Positions 1-49,883 of a stretch of 64,000 bases of DNA are shown piece by piece. Below the pieces are notes generated by a model. The model saw only the letters and a program-made list of their open reading frames with translations. It made no database searches and had not been told where the DNA came from. Where the stretch lies: NCBI GenBank assembly GCA_004431415.1, contig QPMI01000623.1, positions 104,470 through 168,469 on the forward strand, in the 5' to 3' direction. The DNA is from Cyanophora paradoxa CCMP329. Taxonomy: Eukaryota > Plantae > Glaucophyta. Position 1 is the stretch's first letter. Each line of letters opens with the position of its first letter. A program made the position numbers and the translations under genes.

Positions 1-327
1 TCGGTTGGCTGAGCTCGAAGGCAAACCAAGCAGGAATGGCCGCCGCCCAGAGTGACGCTTTTTTTCGTCAGCAATGGGGTTCCTTTAAATTGTACCCCAG
101 CAGTTTTCAAAGAATATGAAGACAACGAGTCTGAGGTGAACGGCCTCAGCCGCACTCGGTGGGGCGACAAGTAAAACAGTAAACAAAGCGCACGGATCTT
201 GCCTGAGAGATGGTCAAGCGCATAAGCTCATGGAGCTAAAAAATACGATTACGATCAGATCCAAACAGAAGAATTACGATCGATCTAGACTGAAACCTCA
301 GATCCAAACCTCATAACCATTGCGATT

Positions 328-420
328 GCGATTACGATTAGGGCGTCCTTGATCTGCGATTACGATCGTAATTAGGACGTCCTAGCTTTGATCTGCGATT
401 ACGATTAGCTAGGGCGTCCC
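328..420. repeat. Three degenerate tandem copies of a 28-bp unit (gcgattacgattagggcgtccttgatct)
   Basis: Units at 328-355, 356-394 and 395-420. Units 2 and 3 differ from unit 1 by short insertions (cgtaat, agctt, ctag) and one substitution. Confidence 0.85.
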
Positions 421-617
421 TGCAGGGGGGCCACTCTCCTTACGGGGGCCACGCAGGGCCCGGCTGGCCGAGCGTGAGCTCGGCCGCGATGCATATGGGC
501 TGGGCCCGGGGCCCGCGGCCGCGGCGGCCGCAGTGTACATTCCCACACTTGTAGCCCGGACCTGCGTTTTTGTACGTGTACATGTCCAAATGCGTATAGT
601 ACTCAGTGACTTTTCCG

Positions 618-725
618 GAAAAGATTCGAATCTGGGGATCCTGCCAATCGGGGTGAAGATTGTTGACTTGATGCATATGGGAGCACGCTCATCTCCGGAC
701 CCGGGAGCACCGCGCCGACATGATG
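618..725 (-). repeat. Third, partial copy of the METTL21 terminal codons (LHPDWQDPQIRIFS, recoded form) plus flank shared with the copy at 2705-2813
   Basis: 618-658 is identical to 2724-2764. Similarity continues to 725 versus 2813 with three small insertions. Confidence 0.9.
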
Positions 726-728
726 ATA

Positions 729-2472
729 GGGTTGGGCTTACTAGTACTCCGGTAATACCCCGTCCGGGCCGAGTAAGGGTAAAGTACTGAAAGTTGCAAG
801 GGGGGGTACCCCCTCCCTTGCTCCCCTGGTGAGTTGGTGCGGCGTACTTTCTGTGTTAGCAATTTTTGTAAGATGAGATTCTTTGCATGCGCTCTCGTAT
901 AGGTGTGATCGCATCCTAGCCGCTGCGAGCGGCGGAAAAAAATGCAGGGGCGGGGCTGCGCAAACATGTCGAGGTCGCGCCTCACCTGCTATCGCTATCT
1001 GCACCAAACCACGTGCGCCTGAATGCTCTCAATGCGCTCTACAAACTCTGTCATACATGTCCGGGCTCGAGAAGTGGCGCGTGGCGCGCTAGGCCGCCTC
1101 AAGTACCTGTTGTACCAGGCGCCGGAAAAAAGTGCTCCTGCGAGTTTGGCGCCGAAATCGTGTTGCAGTACCCAGCAGACTTCGTTCGCGCGCTGGTACG
1201 GCGCTTACATCTGCAGCTGGGCGGAGGCGTGGCGCCGACCGAATGCAACTGGCAACACCATGCTCTGACCGTGGCGAAGTTCTGCTCTGCTCGACACCAT
1301 GCGGACACAGCCGGGGCAGATTTGTGGGTTGCGGAGCCTCGGAGAGCACCTACAGCTGCTGAACAACCTGTACAAGCACGTTCGTCTGCGCCGGTAGTAG
1401 GCGCCCGCGACGCCGCCTTCCGGTGCGCATGCGCGCGCGCCGCGGCCGCTTGGCCGACCGTCGGCGCCCTGCGCCCGCCGACCGCAGATCCGAGCTTCAG
1501 CAGCAGCAGCCCTGACGCGTGGGTCTGGCCTCTAGCTATAGCAGCAGCCGCCTCGCGTGCTAGGCGCTAACGCGCGGGCACGTCGTACGCGTGTTCGGCC
1601 GCGGAGTGCTCCTGCATCTGCCGTATTGGTCTGCATCGGCCCGCGCCAAGCCGCCCTCGCGCACCGATGCCGGCGCCATGTAGCCGGCGGCAGGCTCGAG
1701 AGACAAGCGGCGGCGCGGCCGCGGCTCGACGGGCGCGGCGGGAGCGCGGCGGGCGGGGGCGCGGCTCGCCGGTCAAGCATGTGCATGCGCAGGCTATGCG
1801 CAGGGCCCGGCGCCTCCTGCCGCCGCTCCGCCCGCTTCCTCGCCCGCCGCCCCGCCCGCTGCCTCAGCTTCGTCGACTCCAGGTTCGTCCCGCCGCTGCT
1901 GCTACGCACCTGACCCGGCCGATCCCGCCGGGCCCCGCCCCCGCACAGCCGCTGTCGGGGGCGAGCTGACGCCTCAGCTCTGCGCATGCGCAGGCTATGC
2001 GCAGGGCCCGGCGCCACCTGACGCTCCGCTCGCTTCCTCGCCCGCCGCCCCGCCCGCTGCCTCAGCTTCGTCGACTCCAGGTTCGTCCCGCCGCTGCTGC
2101 TACGCACCTGAACCGGCCGATCCCGCCGGGCCCCGCCCCCGCACAGCCGCTGTCGGGGGAGAGCTGACGCCTCGCGATCGGCCCTTCGCAGGCTATATAT
2201 GCGGAGGGCACGGCGCCACCTGCCGCTCCTAGCTCCCGTGCCCCTCCCCGGGCCCGCCGCCGCCTCGCCGCCGCCTCCCTCCCCACCCCACCCGCCCACC
2301 TCGGCACCCCGCCTGCCGCTGCCTGCCTTCCCCCCCCCCCCCCCCCCCCGAAGTGCCCTGCAATGAGTCAAGTACCCCCCCTTGCACCTCCGCGCGCGGC
2401 CCGCACTTGAAGCACTTGCACAGGGCCGGGCGCGGTCTGCTAGTATTACCCCGAGTATTACTGAGGAAACCC
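729..2472. mobile_element. Decayed non-autonomous TIR-bounded element carrying gene debris
   Basis: Exact 15-bp inverted repeat tgcaagggggggtac (795-809) / gtacccccccttgca (2372-2386), plus ggtaatac (751-758) / gtattacc (2443-2450) and weaker similarity out to about 729/2472. No transposase seen and no clear TSD. Confidence 0.5.
1783..2230. repeat. Tandem duplication with a period of about 200 bp (two near-identical copies and a degenerate third start)
   Basis: 1783-1975 aligns with 1984-2173; a partial third copy lies at about 2188-2230. Confidence 0.9.
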
Positions 2473-2481
2473 CTCTCCTCC

Positions 2482-2515
<34 letters not shown>

Positions 2516-2704
2516 CCCGGCGAGCTCGAGCTAAGGCGGAGGCATGTCCTGCGACGTGAGCCAGCGCAGCCCGGCTGGAAAGCTTCTGAATCGATAGCTG
2601 AGCAACGCTATATGCGCCAAACTGCGCTCCCCGCGCTGCTAGAGCCTGCCCTGCTAGAGGTTGGACGTGTTTGATTGCGATTGCGATCTGGGGTTGGACG
2701 GAAT

Positions 2705-2764
2705 CTAGCCGCGTTTCCTGCACGAAAAGATTCGAATCTGGGGATCCTGCCAATCGGGGTGAAG
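2705..2764 (-). repeat. Synonymously recoded copy of the last 20 codons (including stop) of the METTL21 gene
   Basis: Encodes LHPDWQDPQIRIFSCRKRG*, the same as 2893-2952. All 7 nucleotide differences are at synonymous third positions. Confidence 0.95.
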
Positions 2765-2892
2765 AGTGTTGACTTGATGGGAGCACTCTCATCTCCGGAG
2801 CACCGACATGATGTCACTGATAATGATGATGAGAGTGCTCCGGAACAGAGCTGGGCGCGCTGCACTACATCATGTGTCTACACTGAACGCTT

Positions 2893-3724
2893 CTAGCCGC
2901 GTTTCCTGCACGAAAATATGCGGATCTGGGGGTCCTGCCAGTCTGGATGAAGCTTGCCGGGTGGAACCTGTTCCACCGTAAAGTGCTGACATTCACTTTA
3001 GTTCTTCTACCAGGCTGGCATGGCATTAGGATCGGGACCATCACAAACCTGCATCAGCATCTTGTAGAAGTTCAGTTCTTCTGCTTTTCGAAGCTCGTGC
3101 GAGATAAGGACGGTTGACGTCGCGGTTGTAAGATCCAAAAGACTCTTCACAAGAAGTGGATGACTTTCAACTGTGAATCGGTTACTATCCATAAAATGTT
3201 TGTGGCACCGCGACACATGCATACCATAGTATAGGCAATCTGCAACCAGGACGATGTCGAACGGGGGCTGCAATGCGCTCGCGTCTGAGCCCCACTCGAA
3301 ACTCAAAATTTGTACTCGGTCGTCGACGTGGTTGCGTTGGGTATTCGAAGTCCTGCATTAAACTCGTTAAAACGAGTTTAAACCGAGTTGCAGCGCTTAC
3401 ATTAGAGGTATTAATGGTTTCCGGTCGGTCAGTACCACCTCCTTTGCACCAAGGACTCTAAGATCCAATGTCTTGGGGCTGGGGCATGCATATGCGTGGG
3501 GTCGCGTACGCGAGAGAGAGGCCGCAGATGCCAGTGCCTGCTCCCAGCTCGATCACTCTAGATTCCCGTAATCTCTCAGCAGAAAATTCCTCATTGGAGT
3601 GCGCCAGATACGCGCTTAGCACCAAAGCCGCATCCCATGTGGTACCGCCGTGAGCGAGCAGGCCGAGATCCTCCGTCGTTTTGACCTCGAGGCCGTCCCG
3701 CAGCGCGAAGACGCGCTCCGCCAT
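2893..3724 (-). CDS. METTL21-family (Methyltransf_16) protein lysine methyltransferase, 5 exons
   Basis: Motifs GGTTWDAALVLSAYL, VIELGAGTGICGL, VVLTD, FEWG and FDIVLVADCLYY. Four GT-AG introns join the exons in frame, ending ...RIFSCRKRG*. Confidence 0.9.
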
Positions 3725-3943
3725 ACGCGACGCTGCGCGGCTCGCTCGAGGGCACGAGCGCGGAGGCGACGCGCGCGCGCGCGCACCCGTCACGCGGAGC
3801 GCTCGTCGCTTGCGTTTATCCGCAGCTAGTATGCCCGTGTTATCAATGTGCAAGCCTTCGTCTTACGAGAGTACCCCCCGCAAGCTTCGTCCCCGGCTGT
3901 GAAGTTGAGCAGCCCGGCCGAACCGTTCCTCGTGCGGGTTACG

Positions 3944-6165: not shown

Positions 6166-6862
6166 TCACGATCCTCCCGCCTCCCCCAACTGCTTCCTGT
6201 ACCAGCGGGAGACGCCCTGCACGGGCACACTTGATCAGCGAGCGGCGCCGACGTCGATTTGTCCCGGCCGCGGACCTGGCCGCCTTGGGGAGCGGCGGGC
6301 CGGGCAGGAAACAGGGCGGCGATGCCGAGGGCGCCGCTTGCGCCAAGGCGAGCGAGGGAGGCGTTCCAGGCCACCGCGGGGCCGCTCTCCGCGTATCCCA
6401 GCGTCGCGTAGAACGGCGCCACGTCGCTCTGGCAGCTCAGGTAGCACGCGCGCATCCCCAGGCTGCGATCCCGTCGACAAAGACCCCGCGCGCACGTGCC
6501 GGCCGCCGGGCGCACCTCGTAGCGAGCTCCTCGGCGGCGCGCATGAGCAGGCGGCCGAGGCCCGCCCTCCGCAAGGACGGGTCCACGAGCAGAGACTCGA
6601 TGACGCCGACGCCGTCCGCACTGGCGTCGCGCTCGGCCTCATCGACCGGTATGGCCTTGGACAGCTTCACATGCCCCACGACGCGCGTCCGGTCTTCAGC
6701 GGGGACCAGGAGCAGCCTGCACGGCAGCTGGCTCCCAGCCGCGCGCCTCTGAGCGTCCCTGGCGCTCTCGCTCTTATGCCACTGCTCGCTGAGGAGCGCG
6801 AGCGCCGCCGGCCAGAGCTCGGGTTGCGCGTCCAAGTCGATGACCTCGTACGCGCCGCTCAT
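6166..6862 (-). CDS. NAA80: GNAT acetyltransferase, NAA80 (actin N-terminal acetyltransferase)-like
   Basis: LLSEQWHKSESAR, VVGHVKLSK, acetyl-CoA motif LVDPSLRRAGLGRLLM, LSCQSDVAPFYATLGY and C-terminal WYRKQL; two introns. Confidence 0.75.
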
Positions 6863-7278
6863 TGCTGAAGCAAGATGAGCTGCGCGGCGGTGCGGCGGCG
6901 CCTGGCGCGGCCGCCGACGTCGACGGGCCGCTGCGAGCGCCGGCGGCGATCAGGGGGGTAGACTCGACGCAAGGCGGCCCGGCAACGTGGACGCTACGCT
7001 CATCGCTGAGCAGGAGTCAGACCCCCGACGAAATAGTGGCCGGCGCTGGCCGCAGCCAGAGCAACCGCTGCGCTCATCGCTGAGCAGGACTTCTGTCTGC
7101 AGCCCTGTATGTTTCTCGAAGTACAAAATAGTTGCCGCAGCCAAAGCTGCGCTCGTAAGCGCGTACGTGGTCACCGTATGCGTACTAGGGCGGGGCATCC
7201 AGCTCTGGCGTCTGCAGCTGCGTAGACGAGTAGTATGTTTCTCGAAGTACAGTAAGCCACGTCGACACCATCCTGCCA

Positions 7279-15275: not shown

Positions 15276-17239
15276 ATGCTCCGCCACAGCATAAAGATCT
15301 TCGCCAGGCCCTCCAGCAGCGGCCTGAACGTAGCAGTATCGGCTCGCGCGTTCGCATCGAAGGCGGCCAGCAAAGATGCCCAGAGGTTCGAGTTCACGGT
15401 GCGCCCGGCAGCGCGCGTGTGTTAGATACCTCTAGCTTCCCCGGAGACGAGGCTTGGGGACGGCTTTGAGATGCGCGCGCGCCGCCCGTGCGCGATCCGG
15501 GCTGATTTCATCGCGCCCCGACGTTTTTGCCATTAGCCCTTCGAGAGCCACCGCTGCGAGCCCCCGCCGAACTTCGCATACTCTACCAAGGAGGAGATGA
15601 TGCGGTTCCACCGGGAGATGTACGAGATGAGGCGCATGGAGCTGGTTTCGGACACCCTTTACAAGGCGAAGATGATCCGCGGCTTCTGCCACCTCTACGA
15701 TGGCCAGGTTCTTCAGCTTTCTTTATCCGTGCCGCCGGCGGGCCCGAAGCGCCCGCGCGCCCGCGATCAAGCCGTGCGTTCTGGCGCCGACCCGCCCACG
15801 CCGCGCAGGAGGCCATCACATCCGGCATGGAGGCGGTGCTCACGAAGCAGGACTCCGTGATCACCTCGTACCGCGACCACTGCACTCAGGCGCGGCGCAC
15901 CGTCTGGCCGGCCCTCGTCTCGCGTCGCTTCAGTTTCTGATCCGCACCGCGCCCGCACGCAGTGGGGCCGCGGCGACTCCGTCTTCAGCATCATGGCCGA
16001 GCTTATGGGCCGGTATCCTGGTGCGCGTGCCCTCCGCGTGCCTTCTTTTGTTCCTTTCGTGACCTCTTCCGCCAGGCTGCTCGAAGGGAAAGGGCGGCTC
16101 CATGCACTTGTACAAGCGCGACGCCAACTTCTTTGGCGGCAACGGCATCGTCGGCGCGCAGGGCCCGCTCGGCACCGGCCTCGCCTTCTACCACAAGTGC
16201 GCCGTGCGGGACCGCGAAGGCGCGGCTGAGCCTCTGACGCTCCGCCCCAGGTACCAGAACACTGGCGGCGTCGCCGTAACCATCTACGGTGACGGTGCCG
16301 CGAACCAGGTGCCGAGACCGCTCCTCCGCCGGCCCGCTCCCTCGCCCGCCTGACGCCGGGCGCCTCGCAGGGCCAGCTGTTCGAGGCCTTCAACATGGCG
16401 GCCCTGTGGCAGCTCCCCTGCATCTACGTCTGCGAGAACAACAAGTGCGCGCCGGCCGCCGAGGGCGTCGCCGGAGCGAGCGGTGGTCCTCTGACCGCAC
16501 GCGCGCTGCAGGTACGCCATGGGCACGTCGAACAAGCGGTCAGCGTACGCGGAGACGTACTACACGCGCGGCGACTACATCCCGGGCCTGGAGGTGCGGG
16601 GCGGCGGGGCGGGGCGGGCGGGGCGGGGGTGACGGGGGCGGGGGGGCAGGTGGACGGAATGGACGTGCTGGCGGTCAAGGTCGCCTTCGAGTACGCCGTC
16701 GCCCACGCCAAGGCGCCCCCGCCCCGCCCCGCCCCGCCCCCCTCCCCCGCACCCGCCCCGCCTGACGGGGCGGCGGGGCAGAACAACGGCCCGATCCTGC
16801 TCGAGCTGGACACGTACCGGTACCACGGCCACTCCATGTCCGACCCCGGCCTCTACCGCTCCAAGGACGAGGCCCGCCCCCCGCCCCCGTCCCCGCCCCC
16901 GCCCCCGCGCCTCTCCGCGCTGATCGGCGCTGCAGGTCACGGAGACGCGGCAGACGCGCGACCCGATCGAGCGCGTGAAGGCGCGCATCATCTCCAGCGG
17001 CTGGGCCACCGAGGAGGAGCTCAAGGTCCGCCCGCCTTCGCCCCGGCCCCCGCCGGCGGGCGCCAACGGCCGCGGCGCAGGCGGTGGAGAAGGAGATCCG
17101 CGGGAAGGTGGACGCCGAGATCGAGAAGGCCAAGGCTGCCCCGGAGCCGCCCGTCAGCGAGCTCACCAACGACATCTACAGCGGCAAGACCCCCCAGTTC
17201 ATCCGTATGCCCGACTTCAAGGCCTCCTTCTGGGCATGA
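15276..17239 (+). CDS. PDHA1: Mitochondrial pyruvate dehydrogenase E1 alpha subunit, 12 exons
   Basis: [39 protein letters not shown] motif [10 protein letters not shown]...[15 protein letters not shown] and RDPI; Arg/Ser-rich presequence; 11 introns, 3 of them GC-AG. Confidence 0.97.
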
Positions 17240-17685
17240 GCCGTAGCTTCTTACGGCATCTGTAGCGTTCATTTCAAGGAGTAGGTCCCCTGCAGAACGG
17301 ATGCATCGCAGCTTTTTCAAGCGATCCGAATATGATCGATATCGAATGCAATTATCGTATATCGAATTGAATGCGCCGTCAGCCGCGGCCGGCGCCGCCT
17401 ATGCAGCCGCTTACTAAGCCGCATGCATATGCGCATATACTAGTATGCATATGCGCATCATGGCATGCGCATGTTGATCCGGGCCTGGGTACAGCCGCTC
17501 AACGGGCCTGGTTACAGCAAACCCAGCACCTTGCATTGCCGGCGCCGTGCTCGTACGTGGTTAAGCCCATAGATCGCTCCTCGGCCCGACCAGTGCGCTC
17601 CTCGGCCCCCCTGCACGCGCGGTATCGGCGACACCTTTGAACAAAGCCGCCGTTCACCTGTCCAAGCGGCCTGCAGCGCTTGCAC

Positions 17686-25220: not shown

Positions 25221-28200
25221 TCAGAGGACGACGGTGTATTTGGGGCGGGCGGCGGCGGGCGCGGCGGCGGCGGCGGCGGGAGGTGCGCCGGGGGCGGTGC
25301 CGAAGGCGGCCCCCGCGCCGAGGGCGAGGGGCGCGGGCTGCTGCGCGTTGAGGCCGAGGCCGGGGGCGGGCGGCGCGGGGAGGCCGTCCCGCTCGAGGAG
25401 GGAGGGGCAGCGGAGCTCGCGGCCCCGCAGGAAGCCGAAGCGCGCCTCGCTGCGGCGCCTCAGCGGCGGCCGGCGCAGGGCGGGTCAGCGCGTGCACCAG
25501 ATGCCGGCAAGGTACCGCTCCGTGTAGCCCGAGGCGGCCGTCAGCGCCTCCCCCTGCACCCCGTCACGCCCGGCGGCGGCGGCTGGCGGCGGGGCCGGCG
25601 GGGGCACCCAGGGGAGGCCGCGCTGGCGCAGGGAGAGGAAGAGGGCGGCGGCGGCGACGAGGGACGGGTGCAGCTGCAGCGTGCTGTACTCCCGCGCGCA
25701 CTGCCGCAGCACCTCCTGCGCGCGCCATGAGCGCAGGGGGCGGGGGGCGGGGCGGGGTCGGGCACGGCGGCGAGGGAGGCGACCAAGTCGTCGACGGGGG
25801 CGTCGGGGCCGGCCGCCGCGGGCGCCTCCACCACCGCCGCCGCGCACACCAGCATCTCCGGCGTCACCGCGCACCCCGCCCCGGCCGGAGGCAGCGGCGA
25901 CGGGCTCCGGGGAGGGGGCGGCGGGGGCGGGGTGCGGGGTGCCGGGGAGGGGGCGAGGGGGGTCGGGGAGGCGGAGGGTGTGCGCGGGGGCCGCGGGGCG
26001 GGGCGGGCGGCGGCGAGGAGGTCGGCGAGGTGGCAGAAGGGGCTGTGGTGCTCGAGGTCGAAGGCGAGGAGCTGGAGCATGCAGGCCTCGAGTGCCATCA
26101 CCTCCCCCTGCGTGTACGAGTCGTCCGAGTAGTACACGATGTCCCGCGGCAGGATCGTCCCGTTCGGCACCTGCCCCCCCCCTCAGCCTCCCCGCCGGAG
26201 CAGGGCCGGAGTCGGGGGCGCGGCGGGGGCGCCTGCATGGTGCGGTCTGTCATGCCGAGCTTCGAGAAGAAGTTGTTCGAGGCGAGCATGAGCGCCACCG
26301 CCCCCACCAGCTGCGCCGCGTCAGGCGCGCTGACCGCCGGCCGGGCGCCGGGGGCGGCGGGGCGCGGGCCTGGTAGGAGGCGCGGGAGACGGGGAGGCGG
26401 GAGGTGTAGCGGTCGGTGTAGTGGGCGGCGCGGCAGAGGGCCTCGTCGGGCAGCGCGAAGGCCTCGCAGAGCTCCCCGAGCCAGTCGAGCAGGATCGCCC
26501 GGCAGTGCGAGTTGATCCCCCGCGGGTTCTCCGCCCCCAGGCACCCCGGCGACGGCAGCCGCCGCGGCTGCGCGGCGTCACGGAGGGCCGGCGGCGCGGG
26601 GGGCGGGGGCCGGGGCGGCGCACGGCGCAGGAGTCGTGGAGGATGACGGAGATGGGTTCGGAGGGCGCCCCCGACGCCTTGCGCGCCGCGCGGTGCGCGC
26701 TGGGGCCGGGGCCGCGTCGGGCGGCTCCTGCTCCTCGTCGGAGGTGGTGCGGCGGCGCTTGAGGAGGGCGAGGGCGGGCGCGGCGAGGGCGACGAGGCCG
26801 GCGAGGGCGGCGCCGAGCCGCGCAGCACCGCCAGCCGCCCCAGGGGCCCCGCCTCGCCCCGCCCGCCGACGCCGCCAATGCGGAGGCGTGGGGCACGGGG
26901 CCGGGGCCCGTGAAGGGGGAGCCGCCGGGAGGGAGCTCCCCGGGGGCCTCGGGGAGCGGCCGGGGCGAGGGTCCGGCGCGGCCTTCGAGGCGCGGGGCGT
27001 CGGAGAAGGCGGGGAGCGGGGAGTGGCGGGAGGCGGGGGGCGGGGCGGGCGGGGCGGGGCGGCCGGGGCGCGGGGCCGGGGCGAGGAGCTCGGCGAGGGA
27101 GATGTTGCCGCAGAGGTTCACCTGCAGGGGCGCCCGGCCGCACGCGCAGCGCTCGAAGGCCGGCACGGGCACGTCCAGCGCGTGCTCCTCGCCCGGGGCG
27201 GCGCCGTCGAGCAGCGGGTGGTGCACGAGGGCGCGCATACCCCGGCAGCACCGCCCCGACGTCGCGCACGCCCTGCCCCGCGCGTCAGACCGGCGGCGGG
27301 ACGAGGGGGCGGGGGCGGGGCGCGCGTGGTGGCCTCGAGGAAGCGGACGAGGGCGGCGACGCCCTCGCGCCCGATCGCGTTGTGCTGCAGGTCCAGGTAC
27401 TCGATCGTGCCCCCGGCCGCCGCCGCTGCGCCCCCGCCCCGCTCGCGCCGCTGCGCCGCGCGCGGCGGGGAGTGCGCGCGCGCGGAGGCACCCTCGACGA
27501 GGAGGCGGGCGCCGGCGGCGCGGAGGTCGTTGTGCGCGAACCCGACCCGCCGCAGCGTCCGCGTGCTCCGGAACGCCGCCGCGTACTCGCTCACTGCCGC
27601 CCCGTCAGCCGCGCCGGCGCGGGGCGGACGGCGGGGGCGAGCACGGATGTCGCCGGGGGCGCCGGAGCTGCTGGAGGCGATCCAGTTGCAGGAAAGGTTG
27701 ACGGAGGTGAGGGACGGGGAGCGGGCGAGGCCGCGGGCGATGGCGAGGGCGCGGCGCCAGCCGCCGATGGAGGAGCGCTCGAGGTTGAGGGAGAGGAGGG
27801 CGCGCGCCCCCTCGAGGGCCTCGAGGATGGCCTCGGGGCGGTCGTACGAGGTCGAGACGACGTCGTTGTACGAGAGGTCCAGCGAGGTCAGCGCCGGGCC
27901 CACCAGCAGCGCCGGCAGCGCAATCTTCCCCGCCGCGATGTTCTCCTGCGAGTTCCCCAGCAGCCCGCAGTACCTGCCCGCGCTCCCGTCAGGCTGGCGC
28001 GCCCGGGGCGGGGGGCGGTTCGGAGGGGGGGACCGGAGAGAGAGGCGGGTGAGAATGGGGTTGGTAGAGAGGGAGGCGGCGAGGGCGAGGACGCCGTCGC
28101 GCCCGACGGGGTTGTTGGAGAGGTCCAGCGTCCGCAGCGTCCCCGCCGCCCCCAGGCCGCCCGCCCCGCCCGGGGCCCGCACGCGCGGCACCAGCTGCGG

Positions 28201-40019: not shown

Positions 40020-41185
40020 ATGGCGTCGGCGTTTGCAACTGTGCCAGCAATGGCTGTACCAGCGTCGCTGGGCTGGACCCTCACGCCGCGTGCGCTTGCG
40101 CGTGCGCGGGCGCCGGTGCGGGCGCGACCCGACGCCTGCGCGTGGCGCGCGGTGCGGGCGGAGAGTGACGTGAAGTTCGAGGCGGATGCTCGGCCTACGC
40201 GCCGGGAGGCGCTGGGCCTGGCGGCGGCGGCGGTGGCGTCGGCGGCGGCGTCGCTGTCAACACCGGCGCTCGCGTCGGCGGCGGACGAGGCGGGAGAGAT
40301 GTGCGCGGCGGAGCCGGGCGCTTCGTGCGCGGCGTCTACCGGCGGAGCGTCGGCCGCCGGGCGAATCTCGCTCAGCACGGGCCGGGGCCGGGTCCGCGCC
40401 GCCGCTTCGCCCGCTCCGCGCGCGCGGGTGGGGCGGCTGACGGGGTCGGGGCGGGGAGCTCTCGGTGGGGGTCTACCCGGACTTCGCGTACAACGCGGAG
40501 GGCTTCGGTGGCGAGGGGACCTACCGCGTCGCCCCCGACGGGCGCACCGCCGACTTCGCCTTCCCCGCCGACGCCCTCTCCATCCCCCCAATGAGCTGGC
40601 GCACCGCCTCCATCCTCGGCCGTCCGCCCCGCCCGCGCCCGCGCCCGCGCCCGCCGCGACGCCCCGCGGGCGCAGTGCCGCTGCCGCCCTTCCTCGAGAT
40701 CCGCATCACGCCGCGCGAGGCGACGGGCACGTACGACCTCACGACCGGCGAGTTCAAGATGGCCTTCGACGCCAAGGTGCGCCCCGCCCGCAGAGTCCCC
40801 GAGGTGCCCCGGGGCGACGCTGCTGCAGTTCCAGCTCTTCCTCGCCGGCTCCGCCGCCTTCGTGCCGATCTCAGTCGTCACGAACCTGACCAGTGCGCCG
40901 CGCCCGCCCCCGCGCGCCACGCCGGCCGGCCTCGACGCGGCCCAGCCGGAGAGAGCGCGGGGCTGTTCAAGCGGGCGGCGGGGGCGGCGATCGACGAGAC
41001 GGGGGCGGGGCGACTGGTGGGGGTGGCGGTGGTGCCGCGGACGGGGGACGGGTTCATGGACGGCTTCCTCGGGCTCCCGGTGAGGCCCCCCGCCCCGCCC
41101 CGAGGCCCCCGCCCCGACCGCCCCGGCCCCGCAGACCGACACCCTCGCCGAGCTCCCCGTGCGGCTCTCCTTCGCCCCCGCCTAG
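40020..41185 (+). CDS. Plastid-targeted conserved uncharacterised protein with a possible twin-Arg (Tat) lumen signal
   Basis: MASAFATVP transit peptide, TRREALGLAAAAV signal, YPDFAYNAEG, LG|VPLPPFLEIRITP and LVGVAVVPRTGDGFMDGFLGLP; from recall this motif set occurs in a cyanobacterial/plant family. Confidence 0.7.
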
Positions 41186-41301
41186 CCCCGGACCCGGCGC
41201 CCCCCGCCCGCCCGCCCCGCCCGCCACGCGCCCCCGCCCCTTCCGAGCGCAAGAGTATTGCGAGAGAGCGTGGGGAGCGTGCTGGGGAGCTCGGGGCGGG
41301 G

Positions 41302-43000
41302 TCACGGGGCGGGGCGGGCGGGGGCGGGGCCGTCGGGGGAGGCGCGCCCCTCGAAGAAGGCCTTCTCGGGGGCGGGGGCGGGCGGGGCGGGGGCCGGGGG
41401 CGCGGGGCGCCCCACGAGGCGGAGGAGGAAGGCGCGCGTCTCGACGGGGTTCTTGGCGTACCCCTCGAGGAGCATGCCCGCGGCGAGGAGGCCCGTGGCG
41501 AGCAGGTGGCCCACGTGGAGCGCCTTCGGGAAGAGCAGGAAGCTCAGCACGATCTGCCGCCCCGCCCCCGCCCCCAGGCCTCAGCGCGGAGGGCGGCGCG
41601 GCACGGGCGGGGCCGGCGAACGGTGAGGAGTTTGCGGCAGCTACGCAGAGGGGGCGGGGCGGCGGGGTGAGACGGGGAGGCGCGCGGGGCCGAGGCGGGG
41701 AGATGGGTCCCGACCTGGTGACGACGACGCAGGTGACCGCGCCGAAGCGCTCGACGAGGACGAGCACGGCGTAGGTCCCCAGGTACGAGAAGAACCCGAA
41801 GACCAGCATCAGCGCGTACAGCTCCGGCCGCCCGCTGCAGAAGCGCAGCGCCGCCGCCAGCTCCCCGCTCCACGCGACGTACCCCACGCACAGCAGCGAC
41901 GCCGCCAGGTACGTCTGCGCCCCGCTCGCCCCGCGCCCCACCCCGCGCCCCCGGCCCCGGCCCGCACCCACTGGACCATCTCCGTGAGGGAGCACTGCGC
42001 CGGCGTCAGGCGGGGCCGGCGGGGGCGGGGGCGGGCGCGGGGGCGGGGCGGGGACCTTGTGGGCGCGGAGGAGCTTCTCCTGGGCGTTGCCGATGAATGC
42101 GTCTGCGAGGAGGGCGAGGAGGAGGACGGCAACGCCGGTCCACGAGAACTTTGCCTGGACGCGCACGTCCACCAGCCTGCCGCCCCCGCCTCGCGCGCCG
42201 GCTCCCGTGCGCGCGGGGGCGGAGGGGGCGGGCGGACGTGAAGGATGCGAGGCCGACGAAGAAGCACAGCGCCGACGCGTAGTCCTGCCGCCCCCTCGGC
42301 CCCGCATCCCCGAGGCCGCCCACGGGGGGGGGGGGGGGGGGGGGGGGCGGGCGGGCGGGGCGGGCCATGAGCTTGTACTTCTTGCCGAGGAGGAGGGTGC
42401 CGACGAGCATGACGGGGATCACCTTCGCCGACTTGAAGACGACCTGCCGCCCCCTCGCGCCCGGCCCCGCGCGCCCGGCCCCGTGCGCCGCGCCGCGCCG
42501 CGCGCACGAGGATGGGGTACGTGCAATAGTTGAGGCTCGCGTTCGACAGGCCCATCGACACGAGCAGCAGCGCCCCGATGACCGCGTACCTGCCGCCCCA
42601 GCCCCTCGCCTCGCGCCCCGCGCCGGCAGGGGGTTGGCGAGGGGGCGGGGAGGGGGCGGGCGGGGGCGTGCCACTTGGCGGGGGCTGAGACTTTGGTGGG
42701 GCAGCCCTCGCGCATGCGCTCGAGGGTGGAGAGGGCGAGGCCGAGCACGAAGGAGACCCCCACCATGAAGAACGCGAAGTCGAACCCCTCCACCGTGAAG
42801 ATCAGCTCTGCCCCGCCCCAGCTCAGCTGCAGCCGCCGCCCGCCGCCCCGGCATCCGGCGGTCGCGCCGCTGCTGCCGTGCGCCGGCGCGCTCGGACCTT
42901 GGATGTAGCTGTGCGCCTGGTACAGCACCAGAACGGATCCAGCGGCAATCGCGAACTGCGTGTTGCGCGGCCGCCGATCCAGGAACTTGCTGATGTCCAT
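41302..43000 (-). CDS. UAA-family nucleotide-sugar/PAPS transporter, SLC35B3-like
   Basis: SMGLSNASLNYCTYP, VVFKSAKVIPVM, LLADAFIGNAQEK, FGAVTCVVVT and LSFLLFPK. Confidence 0.9.
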
Positions 43001-43618
43001 CGCGGAGGGGGGGCGCGCGACGCTGGTAAGCTCGGTCGATGCTCTGCGCGCGCTGTGGGCTGCCGCCTCGCAACCAGCGGTGTCGAAAGCTGTCGCACCG
43101 CCGCGCGCGCCCCAGACCCAGTGCCGCGCGCCGCGCTACACTACTGAACTAACCGCCGGTAGTCAGTACCAGGTTCGCGCAGCCTTCCAGCCGCTAGCTA
43201 GCTACGTATACGTATGGAGTGCTTTTTAGTTAGATGAACCGCGGCGGAAACGTTAACTGGACTCCCGCGCGCGAGAGTAGGTTGAACTTGATGCGGTACC
43301 CGGGTCGAACGACAAAGTTGGACATACGTATACTCCGGACAAATTAAAGCGCCGCCGGGCCGATCGAGTGGCAAGTGAACGACGCGGCCGCGGCAAGTGA
43401 ACATCGATATCTAGATCTGTTTTTCGCATGTGCGTGCGGGGCCCGGGGTACGCCTCGCGTCGCTTCAGCACAACGGTTCAGTACAGATTCAGCATCGTTG
43501 CGTTTGTTAACACTGGCAGACTAGCTTGCGCTAGCTGCGGACATCGTTTGAAGTTCTATACAGAGGGTTTGCATGGAGCTCTACGATAGCTGCGTGCGAC
43601 GACACGCGGCGCTGCTGC

Positions 43619-46600
43619 TTAGTCGTCGGCGTCCGAGTCGCTGCCGACGAAGCTCTCATCGTCCTGCTGCGCGATGAGCTCGAGGGGCGGCGGTCGCGTG
43701 CGGAGGGGCGGGGACGCACGTCGGCCGGCTCCTCCTCGTCCTCGTCGTCGTCGAGCTTGTACTTCACGGGCGCCGCCGCCGCCGCGCGCCGCTGCGGCCG
43801 CCTGGCCGCCGGCGTCAGCGGGGGGAGGCGGGCGGCGGGCGGGCGGGGCGGGGGGGGGGGGGGGGGGGGGGGGGACGCACGGGGCGGCTGCGGCGGGCTC
43901 CGGGGCCGGGGCGGGGGCCTTCTTCTTCGGGGCGGGCTTCGGGGCGGGGGCGACCTGCTCGCCCGAGTCCTCCTCGTCGCTCGCCGGCGCCGCCTTCTTC
44001 AGGCGCCGCTTCTTCGGGGCCGGCGAGCTCCCCTCCTCCGCCGCCGCCTTGACGCCGGCCTTGGCCTTGGGCGCCGCCTTGGCCTTGGGGGCCGGCACGA
44101 GCTCCTCCTCCTCCTCCCCCGCCGCCTTCTTCGCCGCGGCGTCGGGCTTGGGGCGCTTGGCGGCGGCCTTGGGCTCGGCGGGGGCGGGCTTGGCCTTGGG
44201 GGCGGCGGGCTTCTTGGCCTTGGCGGGCTTCTTCGCGTCGGCGTCGGAGCCGCTCTCGGCGCGCCAGTCGTCGCCGGCGTCGCTCGCCTCGCTGCCATCC
44301 CCCTCCTCCTCCTCATCGTCGAGGAAGTCCATCATCTCGTCCGCGTACTTCACCGGCTTCCGCGCCCGCCCCGCCCCGCGCCCCGCCGCCCCAGTCTCCT
44401 GCGCCCCGCTCGCCTCAGACGGCGACGCGGGGCTGTGCGCGGGGCGCGGGGCGGGCCTCGGCGCTCTCCTCGTCGTCGGAGGGGGCCTTCTTCTTGGCCG
44501 CCTTGGGCGCCGCCTTCGCCTCCGGAGCCGCCTTCTTCGGCTCCTCCTTCGCCCCGCCCGCCTCCGCCTTCTTCGCCGCCGCCTTCGCCTTCGGCGCCGC
44601 CGGGGCGGGGGCCGCCGGGGCGGGGAGAGTGGCGGGGGCCTGCGGGGCGGGGGTGGGCGCGGGGCGGGCTGTGCTGGGCGGGCCGGGCGGACGCGTGCGG
44701 CAAGGCGGGAGGCGAGGTCCATGTCGTCGTCGTCGTCGTCCAGCGCGATCGTGTCCACCACCTTCGCCGGCGCCGGCGCCGCCGCCTTCTTCGTGGGGCC
44801 GCCTTCGCTGCAGCCGCCGCCGCGCTGCCGCTGCCACCGCCGCCGGCCAGCGGGAGGGCGGGCGCCGCGGCCGCGGCCGGCTTCTTGGCGGCTGGCGGGG
44901 CGTCGGACGGGGCGGGGCGGAAGGTCTCAGGGGCGGTGCGGACCGGGTGCCTTGGGTGCGGGCTTCTTCTTGGGGGCGCTCTCCTCGAAGTCGCTGCCGT
45001 CGTCGAGCTCCTCCTCGCTGCCGCTCTCCTCGTCGCTCCCCGCCTTCTTCGCCGCTGGCTTGCGGGGCTTGGCCGCCGGCTTGCGGGCCTTGGCGGCGCC
45101 GGCCTTGGGCTTGGGGGCCTTGGCGCCGCGCTCGTGCTCCTCGCGCTCGTAGGCGTCGTGGGCCTCGAGGAAGGCGTCGAGGTCGGCCTCCCACATCGCC
45201 GCCTCGGGCGTCGCCTCCAGCTCCGCCAGCTCCTTCTCGTTCCGCGCCTGCCCGCCCCTTCAGCGCCCCCCAACCCCGAGCCCGGCGCGGCGCCGGCGGC
45301 GCGCCTTCTCGTTGAGGAGCTCCTGCACGCGCTCGAAGGTGAGCGTCCACAGCGGCATCGAGAGGAGGTAGTCGTACGCCGACCGCTGCGCTCCCGCAGC
45401 CCCGCATCACGCCCCGCGGCGGCGCGGCGCGGGGGCGGGGCGCGGACCGTGGCGGCGGCGGGGGCCTCCTTCTCCTTGCGGCGGGAGGCCGGGAGGAGGT
45501 CGTCGTCGCTGGCGTCGTCCGCCTCGCGCTTCTTCTTCTTCTCCGCGCTCTCGATGGGGTCGTACTTGCGCGCCTGCAGCTCCGCCAGCAGCTCCGCCCG
45601 CTTCCGGTTCGAGACGACGAGCTCGCCGCGCACGACCTGGCGCCGCCTCGGCGGGGGCGGGGGGCGGGAGGGTGGGGGCGGGGGCGCGCACCTCGAGGAT
45701 GAAGCGGACCTTGTTGGAGAGGCGGACCTGCTGCTCGCGGAGGCGGGCGAGGAGGAGGGCCTTGCGCTTGTGGTAGTACTCGAGGCGCAGCGGGTAGAAG
45801 TCGCGGAGGACGTCGAGCGCCGAGCCGTACTTCTTCAGCTTCCCGTCCGCGCCCCACAGGTGCATGTTGTTCGTCGAGATGCTGTCCACCAGCTTGAACT
45901 TCTTCTCCAGCGCCGCCGCCTTCTGCTCCTCCGTGGTGGCGCCGGCGAGGGCGGCCGCCATCTGCTCCTCGGTCATGTGGACGACGAAGTGGACGGTGGT
46001 GTCCGTGTGGTGCTCCTTGAAGTCCTTGATCCAGACGCCCTGCTTGGCGTCGTCCCCCGTGATGGCCTTCTCGAGCACCGAGGCCTTGTACTTCTGCGTC
46101 CACACCCCGACGGGCAGCTCGGTGATCTCCACCGTCGTCGCGCTCGTCTGCGTCACCCGCCCGTGCACCGTGTAGCCCTTCGCCGTCGGGCGGATGTCCC
46201 CCGTGAAGCCGCGGTACCACGGGTGCAGCGGCAGCAGCTCCTCCTCGGGCGCATCCGGCCCCAGGCGCATCATCCGCCGCAGGTTCTCGACGAGGTCGCG
46301 CGGGTTGTAGCGCGGCACAGACGTGCTCCAGCCCGTGCCGATGCCCTCCGCGCCGTTGACGAGGACGAGGGGGAGGATCGGCATGTACCAGTGGGGCTCG
46401 ATGGACTGCCCGTCCTCCGTGTTGAACTTGAGGAGGCGGTCGTCGGCCTCGACGAAGAGCGTCCGCGTCGTCGGCGCCAGGCGCGTGAAGATGTAACGCG
46501 GGCTCGCCGCGTCGTCGCCACCCTGCCCAGCCCCCTCAGCCGGCGCCCGGCAGCGGCGGCGCTGGGCGTGGGCGAGCCATCAGGCGGGTGCCGAAGGTGC

Positions 46601-49472
46601 CGGACGGGTGGAGGAGGTTGACGTTGTTGGAGCCGACGAAGTTCTGCGCGAGCCTGCGCCGGCGTGAGCGGGGGCCGACGGCTGCGGAAAACGGCGGGCG
46701 CGCTTGATCATGGTGTCCATGAGGGAGACCTCGCCGTGGTGGTAGGCGGAGTGCTCGGAGATGTAGCCGGCGAGCTGCGCCACCTTGACATCCTCTCGCA
46801 ACCGCCGCTTGAAGCACGCGAAGAGGATCTTCCGCTGGCCCGGCTTGAGCCCGTCCACCATCGACGGGATCGAGCGCACGTTGTCCGCCTGCCGCCGGCT
46901 CGCGCGGGGCCGGCGAGCGAGGCGCGGGGCGGCGCGCCTGGGAGAAGAGGATGAGCTCCTTATCGACGAACTCCTTCAGGGGCAGCTGCGAGCGGTTGCC
47001 GTGGTCGAGGAAGGTCCCCGGCTGCGCCGGCGTCGGAGGCGGCGCGGGCAGGGGCCGGGGGCGGGGCGGCGGACGGCGCAGTTGAGGAGCCACTTCTTGC
47101 GCTCGTCGACGCGCTTGGAGGAGAAGGCGAGCTCGATGGCCTCGTCGTCGTGCGGGCCGGTGTGCGCGAACTCGATCCGGTGCTGCCCCAGGTCCGCAAA
47201 GTACTCCTTCGCCTCCGCCGCCGTGTTTGTGCCCAGACCTGCCTCCCCGTCAGGTCCTGCGGCACGAAGGGCGGGGCGGGGCGGGGGCGGGCCCTTGTAG
47301 TACTTGACGGACCAGCCGCGGGAGGCGGGGCTGTCCCGCCACTTCTCGTACTCCGGCATCGTGTAGAACGCGATCGTCTCCTTACCCTTGTGCGCCTGCG
47401 ACGAGGCCTCAGGGGCCGGCCCGGGGGCCGGTCGCGGCGCGGGGAGGCCGGGCTCGCCTTCACGATGGGGGTGATGAACTCGCAGAGGAAGCCCGGGATC
47501 TTGAGGAGGGAGGGCCACTGAGAGTGGATGAAGTTGATGAGGAGGCCCTTGATGTGCGACCCGTCGTGGTCCTGGTCCGTCATGATCATCAGGTGCCCGT
47601 ACCGCAGCGACCGCGTGTCCTCGTAGTTCTTCCCGTGCTGGAAGCCCATGATCTGCGCTCCTCCGTCAGCCCCGCCCGCCCCCGCCCGCCCCCGCCGCGG
47701 CGCTCGCCTTGCGGATGGCGTCGATCTCCTTGTTCTCGGAGAGCTGCTTGAACGTCGCCTCGCGCACGTTCAGCAGCTTGCCGCGGAGCGGGAAGACGCC
47801 GTAGCTGCGGGGCCGCGTGAGGAGAGAGGGGCGGGGGCCGAGGGCGGGGCGGACCGGTCGCGGCCGACGACGGAGAGGCCGGCGACGGCGAGGGCCTTGG
47901 CGGAGTCTCCCTCCGTGAGGATCAGCGTGCACTGGTCCGCGTTCCGCCCCCCCGCGTCGTTCGCGTCGTCCAACTGCTCCCGCGTCGGCACCGGGGGGCG
48001 AGGCCGGCCGCGCGCGGCGCTCGGCGGGCGGACCTTGTCGATTCCGACGAGGCGCTGCTTCTTCGTGCCGTCCTTCTTCTTAAGGGCGTTGCTCTGCTTG
48101 AATTTGGCGAACTCCATGAGCTGGTCCACGATTCCGGACTTCATCACTGCGCCCCGGCCGTCACGCGCGGGCCGCCCCGCCCCGGTCCCTCTGCCCGCGC
48201 ACCCTTCTTGATGATGTCTTCGCTGAGCTCGCACTTGGAGCCGAACGAGCTCGCCTGCGGGTGGCGGGCGGGGTGAGCGCCCACGTTGGAGCGGGCAAGG
48301 GGCGGCGGACCTTGAGGGTCATGTTCTCCTTGGTCTGCGAGTCGAACGCGGGGTTCTCAATGAGGCAGTTGATGAAGACGAAGAGGTAGTTCTTAACCTG
48401 CGCGCGCCACCCGCGTCAGGAGCGGGCGAGCGCGGCGCGAGCGCGGCGCGCACTTGGTGGTTCTTGAGCTGGATGCCCTTGACCTTCTTGTTGACGGCCT
48501 CGAGGAGCTTGCCGGTGACTTGGTCGGAGACGTAGTTGACGTGGGTGCCGCCCTTGCTGGTGCTGATGCTGTTGACGAAGCTGACCTGCTGGAACTGGCC
48601 GTCCGAGACGGCGACGCAGACCTCCCAGCGGTCGTTGACCTTCTCGTAGAAGCGCGGCTGCTCGCCCTTGTCGCCCTTGAAGTAGAGACTGACGTAGTCC
48701 TTGAAGCCCTTCACGGAGATGCGCGTACCGTTGAGGAAGACCTTGCAGCTCGACGTGCCCGCCACGTCGTACACGCGCTTCGTGAAGAGAGCCACAATGT
48801 CGTCGTCCAGGCCCTCCATGTGGAAGCGCCGCAGGTCCGGCACGAACGAGATCGACGTCCAGTTGTCCGACGCCTTGCAAGATTTGATCTCCGGCTCCCC
48901 GCGTCCTGCATGTTGTTCCGGAACACCTGCCGGTAACGCCGCCCGCGGCCGCCGTCGGCCGTCTCGACGATGAACTCGCGCGAGTAGATGTTCGTGAGCT
49001 TCGCGCCGTATCCGTTGCGCCCGCCGACGACCTTCTTCTCGTTGTCGTCGTAGTTGCTGGAAGTCAGCAGGTGCCCGAAGATCATCTCAGGAATGTAAAT
49101 CTGCTCCTCCTTGTGGATCTCGACGGGGATGCCCGACCCGTTGTTCCAGACGCTGATGCGGTTGTTCTCACGATCGATCTCAACTTTGATCGTGTCCATG
49201 TTCGCGTCGCGCTGCTTGTGGTCTGCAGCGTTAACGAGGATCTCGTCGAAGATCTTGAAGAGCCCCGGCGAGAAGGTCACAGGCCTGAACACCATGCCCT
49301 TGTCTCCGTCAAAGACCCAGAGCGGCAGCGACTGCTTCTCTGTGGACCCAATGTACGTGTCGGGCCGCAGGAGGATGTGCTCAAGCTGCGACTTCTTCTG
49401 ATAGATCTGCTCCAGCGTGCGCCCGCCATCGTTGCCGCCCGCAACGCCAAGAGCTTTCTTCGTAGTAGCCAT
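43619..49472 (-). CDS. TOP2: DNA topoisomerase II (type IIA), about 21 exons
   Basis: EHILLRPDTYIGS, FDEILVNA, GGRNGYGAK, TEGDSA, PLRGKLLNV, IMTDQDHDGSHIKGL, DGLKPGQRK and catalytic AASPRYIFT. 20 introns (8 GC-AG). Two 1-nt frameshifts at short homopolymers (about 48899 and 44797). Confidence 0.97.
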
Positions 49473-49883
49473 TCTGCTTACCTGCGTGCTGCGGGCGCTC
49501 CTCGCTCGCCTGCGCGGAACATGAGACCGCGCAAGCTCTCCAGACGCGGAACGCCGCCGGAAGGCGGTGCAAGCGGATGCTGGGGAGCGCCGCACCTGCT
49601 TGTCAGTCCAAACGCGGCCGCGCTCGCCGCCGCCGGACTGCGACCGTTGTTGGAAGACACGTACCCTGAGTTCGTCCCCCTCGTCCGAAATACTATACCC
49701 ACACACTCTCTGCGCCGCCTGCGCGACAACAACCGGCTCTCCGGCAGGGCTCTCCGGCAGGGCCACGTGCTCCGGTGCCTGCGGCGCCAGCTCCAAACCA
49801 TAAAGTAGCTATTCAGCGATTCAGGCGCCACGGTGCTAGCTTCCACGGTCCACGAATCGAGCGGGGGCTAGGCCCAGCTGGGG

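Follow-up and report, generated by a model that had tools for sequence, protein, structure and literature searches.

The last 20 codons of a lysine methyltransferase gene of the glaucophyte Cyanophora paradoxa occur twice in the 64,000-nucleotide stretch of DNA analysed here (the window): once in place (copy A) and once further downstream (copy B), with an identical peptide and with nucleotide differences that are all synonymous. On balance it is probable that A and B represent the ends of two gene versions, both working and long diverged, which were joined by the repair of a break. The preliminary description of this locus had put forward an element integrating repeatedly at the gene end, with the remnant of a diverged paralog or allele as one of its alternatives, and that alternative fits the results better than the integrating element.

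The gene and its two tails

2893..3724, minus strand: lysine methyltransferase gene, METTL21-like; five exons, 204 aa; open frame, Pfam PF10294
3724-3510, 3457-3401, 3352-3225, 3170-3049 and 2985-2893, minus strand: exons of the methyltransferase gene, with four GT-AG introns
2893..2952, minus strand: copy A, the gene's final 20 codons in place (sequence comparison, gene model)
2705..2764, minus strand: copy B, the same peptide with seven synonymous differences in codons 2-12 (sequence comparison)
2704..2728: 25-bp identical block (codons 13-20 plus one base on each side), equal to 2892-2916
2605..2704, minus strand: sequence after the stop of B, with two 9-bp direct repeats and a faint likeness to the sequence after A

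The Pfam scan placed a Methyltransf_16 domain (PF10294) in the minus-strand gene at 2893-3724, for which the subfamily name METTL21 comes from the preliminary description, and the EukProt protein model of Cyanophora paradoxa (P0001) matched its exons and had the same last exon, ending in copy A. The model is without a part of exon 1 (window positions 3510-3650) that is open in the window and contains part of the methyltransferase motif, and for this reason it looks mis-spliced in exon 1. The gene is AT-rich for the window, with a GC3 of 0.44-0.68 per exon vs. 0.986 in the topoisomerase II exon; GC3 is 0.86 over the initial 28 codons and drops to 0.56 over the remaining exon 1 (window 2893-3640). 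The other host genes recognized by Pfam encode a GNAT acetyltransferase (6440-6949), a dehydrogenase E1 (16293-17243), a cyclin (25488-27284), a UAA transporter (41057-43148) and a type II topoisomerase (45410-49808). The genome of C. paradoxa is described as likely haploid, with 29.4% of repeats (PMC6704402).

Both copies encode, on the minus strand, LHPDWQDPQIRIFSCRKRG-stop, i.e. 19 residues and the stop. The repeat of the last 20 codons with 7/7 synonymous differences was confirmed, all of them being at third positions (codons 2, 3, 4, 7, 10, 11 and 12), and so was the 25-bp identity running through the stop; two matches to the 24-bp core of this block were obtained in 0 of 100 window shuffles. 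The block also holds a 4-bp inverted repeat around 6 bp, which resembles a recombinase core and is too short to count. Under random substitution, the probability of seven synonymous changes out of seven was 1e-5 to 1.2e-4, which excludes the neutral decay of a simple duplicate, as had been argued in the preliminary description, and thereby indicates, as judged from the substitution pattern, that both tails evolved as working coding sequence. A six-frame scan identified A/B as the sole peptide-identical, nucleotide-diverged gene-end duplicate in the 64 kb. The differences are less strongly clustered than they appear: a run without changes has p = 0.006 if required at the stop end, and p = 0.05 if allowed to lie anywhere. 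Methylation-driven decay of the tails was rejected, with CpG being involved in none of the seven differences. The homology sets in abruptly at codon 1, without any clear homology further upstream and with five bases common to A and B at the 5' start of the copies. The likeness of the sequences following the two stops is faint (p = 0.02-0.07; matched by 132 of 2000 shuffles and by 73 of 3000 random segments), and was not significant in a stop-anchored alignment, where 1285 of 2000 shuffles were as good.

The two tails differ at seven of the 11 variable codons, which is close to the 6.4 predicted for saturation; the probability of a match at all of the last eight codons under saturation is 0.0003. 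Host-rare codons, with the topoisomerase II exon (GC3 0.986) as a reference, are present at three of the seven sites in A and at four in B; because of this, provided that the ancestral codons were host-like, it is likely that protein constraint acted on both lineages while they drifted, and on the same assumption the probability of 4/4 synonymous changes in a neutral B is 0.004. Codon usage was also tried as a pointer to a foreign tail and does not decide between A and B. An alignment was made with 136 of 151 fetched proteins, leaving out P0002 and 14 proteins longer than 360 aa. None of the 135 homologs in it had more than 8 of 12 tail residues in common with this tail, so that the donor of the second tail would have been a very close protein with distant codons. 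For two C. paradoxa strains, a nuclear dS of 1.21 and a dN of 0.04 are given in table 1 of PMC4453064; at this dN, 19 unchanged residues have a probability of 0.16, and the inter-strain values fit the A/B pattern.

Of 24 sequencing runs listed, 20 contain part of the window; no RNA run is on record among those containing it, which has no bearing on expression. The physical linkage was followed in short-read contigs of four runs (X1, X4, X9 and X14) out of 14 DNA runs. The recoded part of B, the spacer and A were found on one contig with 0 differences and at single-copy depth in all four (2736-3848 in X1; 2724-3848 in X4, X9 and X14), which rules out misassembly of A and B, named in the preliminary description as an outcome that would overturn its reading. 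The copy 3 region at 630-774 was also represented by a contig with 0 differences in X1. The contigs of X4 and X9 continue past 2724 by 68 and 98 letters, respectively, and the depth over 2661-2723 is low there. These extensions may represent a deletion or an empty allele (copy 3 to B), or else graph simplification, which can explain such ends because window-specific repeat variants are missing even in X1. Among the contig matches listed for the four runs there was neither an empty-site nor a circular joint.

A donor or a second allele did not emerge from the collections searched. Among 75 candidate proteins, only the query itself was recovered; the protein cluster of the methyltransferase had a single member, and the closest other representative was 44% identical, in a library that hides relatives above 50%. 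An exon 3-4 query returned 65 candidates, none of them close. The degenerate tail pattern had no DNA match in viral or metagenome contigs, and none of 22 candidates in viral contigs was the methyltransferase protein. Five of 212 candidate metagenome loci were distant relatives (27-38%), none of which had a duplicated gene end, and an intact gene with B-type codons was absent from the protein collections examined.

The spacer, the third copy and the surrounding repeats

2828..2892, minus strand: likely 3' UTR, immediately following the stop of A, from which the filler patches derive
2780..2814: filler-like patchwork with three exact inverted copies of the adjacent 3' sequence
2780-2793: patch, inverted copy of 2828-2841
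2794-2803: patch, inverted copy of 2835-2844
2806-2814: patch, inverted copy of 2867-2875
2765..2779, minus strand: 15 bp upstream of B, with an 8/9 match to the gene's last intron/exon border (weak)
618..725, minus strand: copy 3, which reproduces 2724-2813 (B's recoded codons and some spacer) and is the younger of the two
610..623: perfect 14-bp palindrome at the point of departure of copy 3 from B
727..2474: inverted-repeat element adjoining copy 3, likely non-autonomous, with approximate ends
285..2650: nest of multi-copy repeats with many footprint-like motifs

A and B are separated by a non-coding spacer of 128 bp, which was at single-copy depth in 4/4 runs. Its half facing B contains, 15-50 bp upstream of B, the three inverted patches of 14, 10 and 9 nt, all taken from the 65 bp after the stop of A, with the first two overlapping in their source. 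Three such inverted matches were obtained in 0 of 5000 dinucleotide shuffles and in 0 of 91 window tiles with a GC content up to 0.62; in the total of 499 tiles they were seen in eight, all at 80% GC or above. The B-side half of the spacer thus looks like a patchwork as in templated end-joining. A good hairpin fold was obtained for the spacer as well (z = -3.6). The 8/9 border match, with an in-frame GAG just upstream of it, was reached in 53 of 3000 shuffles. A search against Rfam gave two matches, both far below the threshold, and the spacer pattern had no match in viral contigs.

The third partial copy noticed earlier does exist, and is longer than the 618-658 claimed for it, extending to 725 (= 2813). 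Positions 618-659 are equal to 2724-2765 over exactly 42 bp; beyond 659 there are two substitutions and, up to 725, 18 extra bases in footprint-like insertions. Copy 3 covers B plus 49 bp of spacer, a sequence found ahead of B and copy 3 alike. It departs from B 5 bp into the identical block, as had been observed before; the departure lies inside the palindrome, and 612-616 match B again, because of which it may represent a 5-to-1 base replacement instead of a clean end. Since copy 3 carries the recoded codons of B exactly, its sequence implies two tail versions, not three. Copy 3 thus appears to be a later transposon-associated duplicate of B and not an independent tail, and as such it adds nothing in favor of repeated integration.

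The element abutting copy 3 has a 15-bp inverted subterminal match (795-809/2372-2386), a high summed contig depth and a joint from 791 to 2442 in 4/4 runs; no target duplication was found at it. It includes a 198-bp tandem repeat (1783-2229, 2.2 copies) that is multi-copy elsewhere in the genome. A 216-aa frame in the repeat had no Pfam match and produced weak, low-recognition Atlas matches only. The summed depth over the whole nest was about 4- to 280-fold above the flanks, a value that does not represent a copy number. Nine-base motifs composed of a triplet, its reverse complement and the triplet again, which resemble excision footprints of hairpin-type transposons spread over the genome, were counted 13 times vs. 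0.6 expected in 285-2723 and 87 times vs. 8.9 expected in 3849-64000, an excess of about 10- to 20-fold over 285-64000 relative to mononucleotide shuffles; some of them were polymorphic among the repeat copies. One such motif is located in the first intron of the methyltransferase gene (3486). Short repeats of the GATT(A/G)C type were present outside copy 3 (230-420) and after B (2673-2687), in the latter case between the 9-bp direct repeats, and are possibly subterminal motifs of one transposon family.

Origin of the two tails

The joining of two diverged gene versions by break repair would have proceeded as follows. A break in the last exon would have been patched with a diverged allele from a different Cyanophora lineage as the template; the copying would have run through the stop and about 65 bp beyond before it was aborted, and end-joining with snap-back synthesis would have tied the new end to the old tail, making A the incoming and B the displaced end. 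An old tandem paralog deleted down to its tail could have left the same trace. Our own division of the probability places its larger, still tentative, share on the allele, while the paralog is possible with a smaller share. The 25-bp block would be due to a later conversion between nearby repeats, or to chance if the divergence was moderate, and copy 3 would have arisen afterwards, through transposon activity. The spacer and the gene are single-copy, while copy 3 lies in repeats, and the exact inverted copies of junction-adjacent sequence are those by which templated end-joining is recognized. Several observations speak against break repair: a donor was found neither among the proteins nor in the viral and metagenome contigs searched; an extra conversion step is needed because the identical block is so improbable at saturation; the homology starts abruptly at codon 1, and the likeness of the downstream sequences vanishes when they are anchored at the stop; the published strain is likely haploid (PMC6704402), and no report of sex or DNA exchange in glaucophytes was met with in the literature searched; and the spacer is able to form a hairpin, which could equally be a property of a small cassette.

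Some of these difficulties disappear if B began as an exact local copy, the longest patch of the templated insertion to which the inverted patches are also due, and a diverged allele subsequently took the place of the gene body, with a crossover between codons 12 and 13, leaving B as a snapshot of the old allele. Such a sequence of events accounts for the abrupt start of B, for the identical block without a conversion step and for the weak 8/9 border match upstream of B, with all patches coming from within about 200 bp; however, the replacement tract must end within a few bases, the faint downstream likeness is not expected and no diverged allele was found in the protein searches, which makes it rather unlikely. 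A mobile origin, as suggested in the preliminary description, is unlikely as well, although we place it somewhat above the local copy; on this view a site-specific integrating element, a homing-type element or a tiny protein-less hairpin cassette, inserted in the last exon, would have brought tail A and pushed the native B downstream, its body being lost or never having existed. A duplicated gene end with an intact target protein, as at att-type sites, is present, and a layout of working tail, short insert and displaced tail is shared with att replacement sequences (PMC10111431) and with the endonuclease elements of fungal mitochondria, whose C-termini are foreign (PMC3630166). The differences between A and B cluster in 36 bp, the spacer folds well, identical sequence stands ahead of B and copy 3, and giant-virus insertions are reported in C. 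paradoxa (PMC12344493). Yet the gap between A and B is merely 128 bp at single-copy depth, only 5 bp are common at the supposed crossover, the inverted repeats look like filler in that they are copied from one arm with overlaps, copy 3 is no third tail version, and tail, spacer and protein are all without a match in viral contigs. The filler-like patches further tend to speak against a conservative att crossover, which would not be expected to leave any. No tyrosine or serine recombinase was found within the 64-kb window, a check which intron-split genes could escape. Pfam scans covered 222 of the 226 ORFs with 150 aa or more, i.e. all but four overlapping frames at the window's end, as well as 37 further frames around the locus (10 + 27); within the limits set by introns and the window edge, they revealed host genes and not one domain of a recombinase, integrase, transposase or nuclease. 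There was also no endonuclease ORF between the inserted and the displaced tail. With no body between the tails, filler-like sequence at the junction, no recombinase found and two tail versions only, the claim of repeated integration received no support; its other component, one tail displacing another with the protein kept intact, may be so. A glaucophyte nuclear element supplying its own synonymous tail, possibly as a protein-less 188-bp hairpin cassette moved in trans, is decidedly doubtful.

Two further explanations were considered. B might be a selected alternative last exon, spliced from exon 4 via the GAG acceptor seven codons upstream, which is in frame with the phase-0 donor and would explain selection on B in place. 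This is improbable: the four introns of the gene end with TAG or CAG, the acceptor lies inside filler-like sequence and the database model uses A, while Phe140, conserved in 120 of 135 homologs, would be missing from the product, in which the Val-to-Leu spacing would be reduced from four residues (118 of 135 homologs) to two (3 of 135). An origin of the copies in an assembly artefact or in the collapse of a second haplotype is barely credible. The region is repeat-rich, and the short-read contigs lack the repeat variants specific to the window; against this, contigs in four runs carry the recoded codons of B together with A, with 0 differences and at single-copy depth, run X1 also contains 630-774 without a difference, and the published strain is likely haploid (PMC6704402), so that for A and B an artefact is already largely refuted.

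Significance and comparison with known systems

If break repair indeed joined the two tails, the mechanism is ordinary DNA repair, and the scar records a meeting of two strongly diverged gene versions in one Cyanophora nucleus. Should one of them be the allele of another lineage, the locus would bear a trace, open to testing, of mating or of an exchange of DNA among glaucophytes, in which, to our knowledge, sex has not been observed. The literature searched had no passage showing sex or DNA exchange in this group, and the text available from PMC6492006 says nothing on glaucophyte sex. If, on the other hand, an element was responsible, replacement-tail integration would have a counterpart in the nucleus, and with the 188-bp cassette the bacterial/mitochondrial 'replacement tail' strategy would be operating in a eukaryotic nucleus. 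We know of replacement-tail integration only from bacteria and mitochondria. A nuclear element replacing the tail of a protein gene was not encountered in the literature searched, with searches not aimed exactly at this point.

The closest eukaryotic precedent for an integrating element is provided by the fungal mitochondrial endonuclease elements (Allomyces atp6; Glomus atp6, atp9, cox2 and nad3), which likewise combine a working end, a diverged second end downstream and a conserved protein (PMC3630166); in contrast to the 128 bp of non-coding nuclear DNA found here, they are mitochondrial and have a LAGLIDADG or GIY-YIG ORF between the ends. Bacterial tyrosine-integrase elements in icd and tRNA genes also duplicate the gene end while the target stays functional (PMC10111431), but they possess an integrase, a body and a core of about 7 bp and leave no filler, whereas the present locus has five common bases, no body and filler. 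Site-specific integration into eukaryotic nuclear DNA is known from the phaeovirus insertions in brown algae, with a 2-bp core and, in the portions of the source available, no description of a replacement tail or of the restoration of 20 codons (PMC13236599), and target-specific nuclear integration from the Dada transposons, which replace about 6 bp in RNA genes and do not restore 20 codons (PMC8869645); no element of either type was found at the locus. Complex insertions, in which copies of nearby sequence overlap, as well as inverted repeats of the snap-back type are reported as products of synthesis-dependent end-joining (PMC2943611), and filler and one-sided invasion repair are described in plants (PMC9299229). 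While those studies dealt with experimental breaks and known templates, and here the diverged homolog is unfound and the pathway is deduced from one scar, the junction, with several inverted copies of adjacent sequence that are exact and overlap in part, resembles the products of synthesis-dependent (polymerase theta-type) end-joining.
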